From assembly GCA_020353515.1 (NCBI GenBank), contig CP070695.1, forward strand, positions 3,288,118 through 3,352,117: DNA of 64,000 nucleotides, given 5' to 3'. Origin of the DNA: Candidatus Heimdallarchaeota archaeon (GTDB taxonomy: Archaea > Asgardarchaeota > Heimdallarchaeia > Hodarchaeales > Hodarchaeaceae). Below, piece by piece: positions 53,074 to 55,163 of this stretch. The notes under the pieces were generated by a model that was not told where the DNA came from, did no database searches, and saw only the letters and a program-made list of their open reading frames with translations. Position 1 is the stretch's first letter; each line of letters begins with the position of its first letter. The position numbers and the translations under genes are program-made.

Positions 53074-53748
53074 ATGTCTGAAAAAGAGAACAAAGAGGAA
53101 TTAAAAAAGGAGTCAGATACATCTTCTGCGGAAGAAACTGATAAGGATAAAGAAAGTAAAGTGGAGCAGGAAACAGCACCCCAACCTAAGAAAAAATATG
53201 TGTTCAATTGCACAAAATGTGGAACCTGCTGTGAGAAAAGGGAATTTGTACCAGTATCATTAGGAGACATCCGAAATTGGACAAAATCTGGTACTATAAA
53301 TGCAGTTTTCCCAAACTTAAAATTTCAAACACTTCAAGTAGGTGAATCAGAAGAGAAACAGGCTTTCATGACCCTTGTCATTACTGGTTCAGAGAAAGGA
53401 TGTTCTTTGTTTGATCAAGAGAACCGTCTTTGTAATATATATCATTCCATGCCCTTAGAATGTAAAGCGTTTCCATTAGGTTATAATGGTAAGAACTATT
53501 ATATCAAAGATAAAACAGTTCCTGGGTTGGGACAGGGAACAATGACCAAAGAGCGTCTTATAGAAGATCGTGATAATGCACGAGCGGATTTTGAAGCCCG
53601 AATCGAAACACAAATGATGCTTCCTATGTTATACTCGTTATTTATGCAGAATTTAGTGGAACAGCAACAAAAAGTAATGGAAGAAATGCCAGAAGAAAAA
53701 CGGAAACAACTTGATGATCTGTTAAGAACATCAGAAGGAAAGTCATAA
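53074..53748 (+). CDS. YkgJ family cysteine-cluster (CxxCxxCC) protein
   Basis: FNCTKCGTCC...CSLF...CNIYHSMPLECKAFP. Confidence 0.85.
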   Translation: MSEKENKEELKKESDTSSAEETDKDKESKVEQETAPQPKKKYVFNCTKCGTCCEKREFVPVSLGDIRNWTKSGTINAVFPNLKFQTLQVGESEEKQAFMTLVITGSEKGCSLFDQENRLCNIYHSMPLECKAFPLGYNGKNYYIKDKTVPGLGQGTMTKERLIEDRDNARADFEARIETQMMLPMLYSLFMQNLVEQQQKVMEEMPEEKRKQLDDLLRTSEGKS

Positions 53749-54438
53749 ATTCTCTATTTTCGGAGAAAAACCACAATTAGAACAAGCCCACTTTGCAAAT
53801 GGTAACAATTCTTTTTTACGTGATGAAACAGTGACTAATTGGGAAAAAGGTAATAGGTGCCCTTTTTCACATCGAGGACAAGGCGGAGTTGTCATTAAAG
53901 ACGGTTTTGCTCCAATAAAATCCGTTAAAGGTGTGGGAGTTTTTGGAGGGTCTTTTTTTCTCTTTTTTGGAGAGGTTTTAGGGGGGTTTTTAGGAGATTT
54001 TTTCTCAGCTTTGGTTTTTGGAGCTTTCAGAATTGGTGCTTTAGGTGCGATGAGTTTATTTAATTTTGCCTCTGCTTGAGAGTGAATTTTACTTAAGGGA
54101 GTTTTATCAAAATCCTCCACTGGACCTATTCCCTCAAGGGGAATTGAATCGATACAACTCCAAAAATCATCAGGTTCCCCTCCTTGATCTGCTGATTTAA
54201 TCCGAAAAGTTATTCCATAATGTCCTCTGATCTCTGAAGCTACTCTACTAGAGATGAATCGGGTTCGAACATCGGCATCTTCCCCAATCCAGATCCAGAT
54301 TTCTTTTTTTCCCTCTTCAACGAAGATATAAACTTCTGTGGATTTTAGGTTCTCTTTTTTAAAGACAACTGGGTCAAAAAAACCATCATTTTGCACTTGA
54401 TAAGCTACGATTCGAGTATTTCCCAAAAAACCAGCCAC
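53743..54438 (-). CDS. Single gelsolin-domain protein with Lys/Pro-rich linker and C-terminal Zn ribbon
   Basis: LKSTEVYIFVE...IWIWIGEDADVRTRFISSRVA...DQGGEPDDFW (gelsolin); KKSPKNPPKTSPKKRKKDPPKTPTP; CPRC...CSNC. Confidence 0.78.
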   Translation of the reverse strand: MAGFLGNTRIVAYQVQNDGFFDPVVFKKENLKSTEVYIFVEEGKKEIWIWIGEDADVRTRFISSRVASEIRGHYGITFRIKSADQGGEPDDFWSCIDSIPLEGIGPVEDFDKTPLSKIHSQAEAKLNKLIAPKAPILKAPKTKAEKKSPKNPPKTSPKKRKKDPPKTPTPLTDFIGAKPSLMTTPPCPRCEKGHLLPFSQLVTVSSRKKELLPFAKWACSNCGFSPKIENL

Positions 54439-54524
54439 TCTACAGTTAGACGAGTGTGTTTCCCTGTAATATCAACAATATAAAAACTTCAAGATTGATT
54501 TTTATTTGGTGCTTTTCTCAAGGT

Positions 54525-55163
54525 TCAAATTAATTCATTCGATAAATTTGCTTTAACTGGAGATTGCTTCATCAAAGCTAAGATCGATCTTATTTGAATG
54601 ATCTGAAGCGGTAGATGTTCTATTCTCACTGTTTTAATAAGTATATAATATGTAGGAGTGTTGATGATCTTCTCAATGCCAGTAAAATCAGTTATTTGTT
54701 TAACATTTGATTTTTCTTTAGAAATGTAAATTTCCATTGAAAATTCTCTCATAAATAAGCCTCGAAAAGAAGATCGCTTTCGACGAATTACGATTCTCGT
54801 TTCTACATCAAGAAGAGAGAGTAATCTTTCAGGAAAAATTATTCCCTTCCTTATCCAGACCATTTGGCCATTGGATCCAGTGAGATCTGTTAATGAGGGT
54901 ACCCAAAGGAATAACATTTCAACTAATACTAATAACCCAATAAGAAATATCGCTGAACTGACTATCTCAATGATATTTATTGCAAGCGAGTCAGCTATTG
55001 TTTTGTAATCTGTTTGTTCGGAAGATGAAAAGGTTACTTCTCTCATATTCTGCATAGTAGAACGTAAACCAATTATTAGAAACATTGAGGAAAAAGCAGC
55101 TGTTAAAATTACAATGAAAGTGACCTGATATCTCCGAACTCTCTGTTTTGGTAGTAACAGCAA
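54525..55163 (-). CDS. Two-TM membrane protein, hypothetical
   Basis: Two hydrophobic helices then a soluble domain; directly downstream of a wHTH gene. Confidence 0.6.
   Translation of the reverse strand: MLLLPKQRVRRYQVTFIVILTAAFSSMFLIIGLRSTMQNMREVTFSSSEQTDYKTIADSLAINIIEIVSSAIFLIGLLVLVEMLFLWVPSLTDLTGSNGQMVWIRKGIIFPERLLSLLDVETRIVIRRKRSSFRGLFMREFSMEIYISKEKSNVKQITDFTGIEKIINTPTYYILIKTVRIEHLPLQIIQIRSILALMKQSPVKANLSNELI

Follow-up and report, generated by a model that had tools for sequence, protein, structure and literature searches.

A conserved Hodarchaeales protein with one gelsolin domain, a basic linker and a four-cysteine ribbon, and its putative role on actin

Described Asgard gelsolins and a gene of related layout

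To our knowledge, the Asgard gelsolins characterised so far come from Thor, Loki and Heimdall archaea only. In Thor, ProGel is a bare domain of ~90 residues without Ca2+ sites that is nearly inert by itself, with a near-negligible affinity for actin (Kd 337 µM), whereas 1DGelX, which has one gelsolin domain without Ca2+ sites and a non-gelsolin C-terminal extension, binds actin with a Kd of 7.7 µM and nucleates, severs and bundles it without Ca2+; its authors proposed that the extension is a side-binding tail (Akil et al., 2020, PNAS, PMC7444086). A second layout is the "Link-Zn" design of Loki2DGel/MKD1-2DGel (PDB 7WHG), in which a gelsolin module is followed by a linker of 69-79 residues and a C-terminal (CxxC)2 zinc domain that also occurs as a stand-alone protein and for which docking has been proposed (Akil et al., 2022, Commun Biol, PMC9433394). 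Here we describe a gene whose product has features of both designs. It lies in a stretch of 64,000 nucleotides (the window) from Candidatus Heimdallarchaeota archaeon (Hodarchaeales, Hodarchaeaceae; assembly GCA_020353515.1, contig CP070695.1, positions 3,288,118 to 3,352,117), part of a closed Asgard chromosome of 4.94 Mb with 35.8% G+C.

The gene occupies positions 53743..54438 of the window on the minus strand and, according to the open reading frame (ORF) list and its translation, encodes 231 residues plus a stop from a GTG start. The start is supported by the orthologues, which carry ATG at this position (M-A-G-F-L). A sequence-only reading of 53743-54438 had proposed one gelsolin domain, a basic linker and a Zn ribbon, and this was borne out by phmmer searches, an AlphaFold2 (AF2) model and the invariant cysteines described below. 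The survey of architectures that it had suggested found the fusion in 27 database homologues (identity 44-80%, the whole architecture being present in all 27) and, by a profile search with the ribbon, as a single-copy gene in 20 of the 21 further genomes that GTDB places in this genus/family. This recurrence is far beyond chance, and the ORF is a real, conserved gene of one Asgard (Hodarchaeales-type) group. The close homologues are labelled Hodarchaeota, Hodarchaeales or Promethearchaeota by NCBI, and one carries the label "Thorarchaeota", which we take as loose.

As in 1DGelX, a single gelsolin domain is followed here by non-gelsolin sequence, in this case 130 residues without a gelsolin fold. 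The X region of 1DGelX, which we compare by description, is reported as a predicted coiled coil, whereas the tail of our protein is a disordered polybasic linker and a four-Cys ribbon; in its AF2 model the part after residue 112 has no helix of at least 4 residues, a 3-residue helical turn at aa 179-181 being all that is formed. The order of gelsolin module, linker and C-terminal (CxxC)2 zinc domain is that of Loki2DGel. However, Loki2DGel has two Ca2+-binding gelsolin domains with a WH2-like motif between them and acidic linkers (pI 4.6-4.7), as opposed to a single domain without the expected Ca2+-ligand residues and a basic linker (pI 10.1) here, and the Loki zinc tag is found on many proteins while this ribbon is found on one per genome. 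The likeness to Loki2DGel is an analogy of layout only. ProGel (PDB 7C2F) has the closest gelsolin-domain structure, likewise without Ca2+ sites, and differs in lacking the 130-aa tail. A full-text literature search found no paper that describes a zinc-ribbon gelsolin from Hodarchaeales. The layout is thus a variant of the published 1DGelX and Loki2DGel Link-Zn designs, the new elements being the combination of a single domain free of Ca2+ sites, a basic linker and an unrelated ribbon. We consider the 231-aa protein to be, with reasonable probability, an actin regulator that is confined to its clade, acts without Ca2+ and is built on the plan of the Asgard one-domain gelsolins ("1DGel-Link-Zn"), the tail serving as a second attachment.

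The gelsolin domain and its calcium-site residues

The gelsolin/cofilin-fold domain spans aa 9-100 (54139..54414, minus strand) and was delimited by phmmer, AF2, Foldseek and VIA-align. In a phmmer search of the PDB, residues 10-100 of the 231-aa protein matched Thor 2DGel3 (7C2H, E 3e-8), Thor ProGel (7C2F, E 3e-6), Heimdall 2DGel (7WHF, E 3e-6) and villin (E 2e-5). An AF2 run with 18 close homologues had a mean predicted local distance difference test (pLDDT) score of 48.6; the model reported here was made from a 150-row alignment and has a pLDDT of 91-98 over aa 10-100. The gelsolin fold expected by the sequence-only reading, a central mixed beta sheet with a long helix on one side and a short one on the other, is therefore present, with ProGel as the top match of both structural searches: 7C2F_B in Foldseek (template modelling score, TM, 0.91; root-mean-square deviation, rmsd, 1.3 Å) and 7C2F_D in VIA-align (Z 15.7, rmsd 1.2 Å over 88 residues). 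After ProGel, VIA-align returned domains of 2DGels, fragmin, adseverin, gelsolin and villin at Z 11-13, with Z > 11 for 17 chains of gelsolin, villin, fragmin and adseverin altogether, and clearly lower values for Sec23/24 (Z 7-9.5) and ADF/cofilin (Z 6-7). By fold and by sequence similarity alike, the domain belongs to the gelsolin homology domain superfamily.

The structural matches to Sec23/24 bring up a role for the fold away from actin, for example a coat-like or trafficking function comparable to that of Sec23/24, where a zinc finger is combined with a gelsolin domain; the weak actin binding of Thor ProGel itself would also be in keeping with such a role. Nevertheless, actin-binding gelsolins match clearly better (Z 11-16), and do so by sequence as well (E down to 3e-8), the order of the domains is the reverse of that in Sec23/24, trunk and barrel domains are absent, and the nearest relatives of the protein are Asgard one-domain gelsolins. 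We regard a non-actin role as highly improbable.

The domain has a mean pairwise identity of 71% in the family. Its most conserved element, which speaks for an actin regulator, is the long helix assigned by DSSP on the AF2 model (aa 57-74; 54217..54270, minus strand): 10 of the 28 family-invariant residues fall within aa 57-71 of this helix, and Gly75 follows it directly. The long helix is the element that contacts actin in solved gelsolins, and the ProGel-like domain of our protein would bind actin through it in the manner of the solved ProGel, 2DGel and G1 complexes.

The same helix holds Thr59 (codon 54262-54264, minus strand), whose counterpart in either domain of Thor 2DGel3 is Glu (V-R-T-R-F in our protein, V-D-E-K-F and A-R-E-K-F in the two Thor domains). 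From the gelsolin signature, we take this Glu to be the type-II Ca2+ ligand; the sequence-only reading had pointed to Thr at the type-II Glu position, correctly, although such a replacement is usual among the relatives. Thr is found at this position in 28 of 29 family members, and K, M, S or R occupies the corresponding column across 118 related Asgard sequences. Since published one-domain Asgard gelsolins also have no Ca2+ sites (Thor 1DGelX being active without Ca2+; Akil et al., 2020, PMC7444086), Thr59 appears to be ordinary for its group and nothing special. The type-II Asp position is occupied by Glu35, and Arg71, which is invariant in the family, probably stands at the type-I Asp position, judging by the helix register. 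A Ca2+-regulated gelsolin would have a type-II Glu at the start of the helix and a type-I Asp near its end; this pair of residues is not found here. Because of the Thr at the Glu position, the Arg at the type-I Asp position and the precedent of the one-domain Asgard gelsolins, the possible Ca2+ independence put forward in the sequence-only reading is plausible.

The linker, the ribbon and a proposed second attachment

The linker (aa 101-184, 84 aa; 53887..54138, minus strand), delimited by the AF2 model and by composition, is Lys/Pro-rich and disordered, with a pLDDT of 47-62 and no secondary structure. It contains 18 K, 1 R and 15-16 P, giving a net charge of +11 and an isoelectric point (pI) of 10.1. 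In the 27 orthologues the linker is 59-108 aa long, and 26 of these linkers carry a net charge between +2 and +26, but the mean pairwise identity of the core (aa 113-168) is only 27%; the sequence drifts while the positive charge stays. A few short motifs are kept, namely E-G-I-G-P directly after the gelsolin domain, L-I-P-P-[KE]-x-P and, in the closer orthologues, a K-K-R-K-K cluster, and the segment P-L-T-D-F ... T-T-P-P-C-P that leads into the ribbon is conserved together with its S/T-P sites. Conservation of the C-terminal parts, on which the sequence-only reading had relied, thus holds for the ribbon (65% mean pairwise identity) and for the linker in its charge, though not in its sequence. 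An 82-aa ORF on the opposite strand (53831-54079, plus), which covers the linker and some of the ribbon in antisense, was read as a codon shadow and not as a gene. Other Lys/Pro-rich basic tails in the genome, which belong to a family-B DNA polymerase, an EutN-like protein and proteins of unknown kind, were uninformative, and the scores obtained in an ESM Atlas feature search with the tail (0.82) were at chance level.

The functions that had been attributed to short motifs in the linker did not fare well. Profilin ligands have consecutive prolines, typically five or more, and the linker has at most 2 in a row, which leaves it without a polyproline tract or a classical profilin-binding site of the kind proposed. 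Phospho-regulation was found to have no basis either, since the S/T-P sites are not conserved save in the segment leading into the ribbon. A repeated, conserved [ST]P[KR][KR] motif of the histone-H1 type (SPKK) is absent, there being one strict copy in this protein and 0-1 in each of the 27 orthologues; such an array does not characterise the family.

The ribbon (aa 185-226; 53761..53886, minus strand) was defined by its conserved cysteines, AF2 and Pfam. The first knuckle has C187 and C190 (CPRC, 187-190), the second C219 and C222 (CSNC, 219-222), and all 18 of the aligned relatives share these four residues without exception; the G-x-L-L-P-[YF]-S sequence that follows the first knuckle and W217, ahead of the second, are likewise invariant. 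In the model the ribbon forms two beta hairpins (pLDDT 83-89, strands 194-203 and 209-219), and the two CxxC knuckles on these hairpins, with their four invariant cysteines, have the structure of a zinc ribbon, which presumably binds Zn. It is basic (pI 9.2). Pfam assigns DUF3716 (PF12511), a fungal domain without an assigned function, with scores of 23-27 bits (25.4 bits when the genome was scanned) where the cut-off is 22, and one orthologue is named "DUF3716 domain-containing protein" by NCBI. However, this likeness consists of a score above the cut-off that is inconsistent among relatives, with a match at E <= 1 in only 10 of 18, and 9 of 14 control genomes gave sub-threshold hits; the match may reflect merely the pattern of the Cys knuckles. 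NCBIfam had no match for the 231-aa protein.

Homology of the ribbon to the zinc domain of the Loki gelsolins (I-H-E-S ... D-Y-P-R-x-Y-G-K-K-Y type) was considered and rejected. Neither the ribbon sequence nor its profile gave a hit to 7WHG_G at E <= 10, an hhalign comparison with 12 zinc domains from Loki genomes reached a probability of 25.8% over 15 columns covering one knuckle, and among 135 genomes of the Loki family the ribbon profile gave just 3 marginal hits. No other protein of the source genome carries the ribbon, nor, as weak evidence, does any database protein longer than 405 aa. Short database hits to the ribbon proved to be fragments, P0031 being cut by a scaffold N gap. Stand-alone relatives do occur: there is a protein of 54 aa (P0164), and another Asgard family has ORFs of 78-82 aa in 3 of 4 genomes. 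Examples of the latter (L026:1423-1671, minus strand, and L028:1477-1713, plus strand) have the second knuckle C-T-N-P-E-C, are flanked by genes for a HypB-like GTPase and a 2-hydroxyacid dehydrogenase, as named from their translations, and weakly resemble Thermoplasma Ta0289 in its C-terminal ribbon (PDB 1PVM, E 0.15).

While the architecture, the fold, a lack of the expected Ca2+-ligand residues, a disordered and charged linker, the conservation and the distribution are shown by the analysis, we infer actin binding, Zn binding and a role of the tail as follows. The polycationic linker of 60-110 aa and the basic four-Cys ribbon would provide a second attachment that is independent of the gelsolin domain, either electrostatic, to the acidic side of the filament, or through docking of the ribbon on some partner, or both. 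A weak monomer binder would thereby become a factor that severs, caps or bundles filaments, as the X region does in Thor 1DGelX. We base this proposal on the published contrast between ProGel and 1DGelX. The charges are complementary, the gelsolin domain having a pI of 4.9 and the organism's own actin a pI of 5.5 (net charge -9), compared with the basic values of the linker and the ribbon.

Several points weigh against a filament-binding regulator. The Pfam Gelsolin model (PF00626) scores 20.3 bits, marginally under its 21-bit cut-off, and Sec23/24 share the gelsolin fold yet do not bind actin. Polycations use the acidic N-terminal run on eukaryotic actin, and the N-terminus of the organism's own actin (M-S-V-A-E-G...) is without an acidic run. 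In addition, the positive charge of the tail suits nucleic acid or anionic lipid equally well, and the genes next to this one are not cytoskeletal.

The ambiguity of the charge leads to the tether between actin and nucleic acid or acidic membranes that the sequence-only reading had put forward beside one to a partner protein, and for which nothing was found beyond the positive charge of the tail. As a tether to nucleic acid, the H1-like basic tail and the ribbon would bind DNA or RNA and couple the nucleoid or a ribonucleoprotein to filaments. The Lys/Pro/Thr-rich tail and the basic ribbon, with their pI values of 10.1 and 9.2, are in keeping with this, and the ribbon weakly and non-significantly resembles those of Rpb9/TFIIS and eL43 (E 0.02-0.3). 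Furthermore, an ESM Atlas cluster from Promethearchaeota suggests that fusions of gelsolin-like domains with nucleic-acid motifs may exist in Asgard archaea. Charge alone cannot discriminate between targets, however, and the lack of conserved SPKK copies, the absence of any significant match of the 231-aa protein to a nucleic-acid-binding family, the absence of a gelsolin-SAP fusion in the source genome and neighbouring genes unrelated to chromatin all count against such a tether, which we judge to be quite unlikely.

The ESM Atlas cluster comprises 52 Promethearchaeota proteins of ~387 aa, a model of which aligns with the gelsolin domain over 98 residues (rmsd 2.7 Å); Rho_N, SAP or HeH motifs occur in 38-54% of its members. 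No fusion of gelsolin with SAP/HeH was found in the source genome or among the ten long hits scanned. The only SAP hit in the genome (PF02037, scoring 27 bits with the cut-off at 23.9) is at the C-terminus of a 307-aa protein (G000:C1:39278-40201, minus strand; L063:1489-2412) that reads from its sequence as a metallo-beta-lactamase-type hydrolase.

Distribution, paralogues and neighbouring genes

The fusion was not found in other families of the order or class among the 400 genomes of the phylum searched with the ribbon profile. The one genome of the genus in which it is absent (G075) is also without the gene for the 212-aa protein encoded upstream, and two apparent truncations of the fusion are scaffold N gaps. 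An exhaustive search of representatives returned 210 relatives, nearly all of them through the gelsolin domain. In a FastTree phylogeny of this domain, which is indicative as it is based on 93 columns only, the family and one 199-aa metagenomic protein of the same layout form a clade (Shimodaira-Hasegawa-like support 83) whose sister group (support 94) is made up of the ~285-aa one-domain gelsolins of Heimdall/Hodarchaeales, which have a 1DGelX-type layout. This topology points to an origin of the fusion by duplication followed by exchange of the C-terminal head.

The source genome encodes one actin, at L004:1474-2613, and, besides the protein described here, four gelsolin-domain ORFs located elsewhere on the chromosome (G000:C1:4559182-4560036, 2587510-2588454 and 2119826-2121082 on the plus strand, and 3201931-3202380 on the minus strand). 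Three of these paralogues (frames of 285, 315 and 419 aa) have one or more gelsolin domains, a Pro-rich linker and an unannotated C-terminal domain without a Pfam match, and the fourth is ProGel-like. The linkers of the three larger paralogues have net charges of -4, +7 and -9, and one of them is an A-P-T-R-[TA]-P-T-A-A repeat. Because these three also have Pro-rich linkers, such a spacer is a design common to the paralogues, while the strong positive charge is peculiar to the gelsolin-ribbon protein. Together, this protein and the three larger paralogues carry four different C-terminal heads.

This variety of heads is one reason for considering the protein as a targeting adaptor, in which the gelsolin domain would be on actin and the tail off it, the ribbon docking on a protein and/or the linker binding anionic lipids, so that capping or severing of actin would be placed at a particular site. 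That this protein and the three larger paralogues share the order gelsolin domain, Pro-rich linker and differing C-terminal domain suggests that the heads are exchangeable targeting devices, and a binding role has been proposed for the unrelated zinc domain of the Loki 2DGels (Akil et al., 2022, PMC9433394). The occurrence of this type of ribbon in small stand-alone proteins is also consistent with targeting. Against it is the finding that the ribbon is on no other protein of the genome and no longer database protein, unlike the many-copy Loki tag.

A candidate partner for such an adaptor, offered as a lead from sequence, is the 212-aa membrane protein encoded immediately upstream in the same orientation (54525..55163, minus strand), which reads as two transmembrane helices and a cytoplasmic domain of ~120 aa. 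Of the 18 genus loci uncut by N gaps, 17 have its gene next to that of the gelsolin-ribbon protein, and the remaining one (L020) gave no match. Its distribution is equally restricted: used as the single query, the 212-aa protein had matches in 18 of 21 further genomes from the genus and in 0 of 61 genomes of the class outside it. The protein evolves fast (25-63% identity) and has no Pfam match; its Atlas feature similarity of 0.90 to bacterial PH_40/DUF5381 clusters is a lead only. However, synteny inside one genus is weak evidence, as gene order is shared there, and the gap of 86 bp between the two genes, with a TATA-like box, suggests separate transcription. This box, TTTTTATATT (54477..54486, minus strand, read from the sequence), ends 38 nt before the GTG and suggests that the gelsolin-ribbon gene may have its own archaeal promoter. 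The targeting adaptor is a tentative explanation, and less likely than a regulator that uses its tail as a second attachment. A stronger version, in which the basic tail and ribbon would bind the nucleoid or RNA, or the membrane via the upstream protein, and so make a dedicated coupler of the actin cytoskeleton to chromosome or membrane, seems unlikely to us.

The wider neighbourhood consists of genes for LarC, a LarB-like protein, a convergent CxxCxxCC protein, the 212-aa membrane protein and helix-turn-helix (HTH) proteins. Their order is kept across the genus, which says little because close relatives share gene order. The CxxCxxCC protein (PF03692, 224 aa; 53074-53748, plus strand) overlaps the gelsolin gene by 6 bp. 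It has an acidic, Lys/Glu-rich N-terminal extension, is 57-92% identical across the genus and is encoded next to the LarB-like and LarC genes.

Among known archaea, Hodarchaeales are considered the nearest relatives of eukaryotes, and their actin cytoskeleton is now under observation in cultures. In this group, the plan of a gelsolin domain, a flexible linker and a small C-terminal head has been reinvented with a different ribbon and an oppositely charged linker. If the tail is a filament side-binder, as in the Ca2+-independent regulator that we favour, the protein would be a minimal model for how one gelsolin domain gains severing activity. If the tail binds something else, it would provide a new link from archaeal actin to another cell structure. 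As the gelsolin-ribbon protein is small, conserved and easy to express, both of these ideas about its tail are directly testable.

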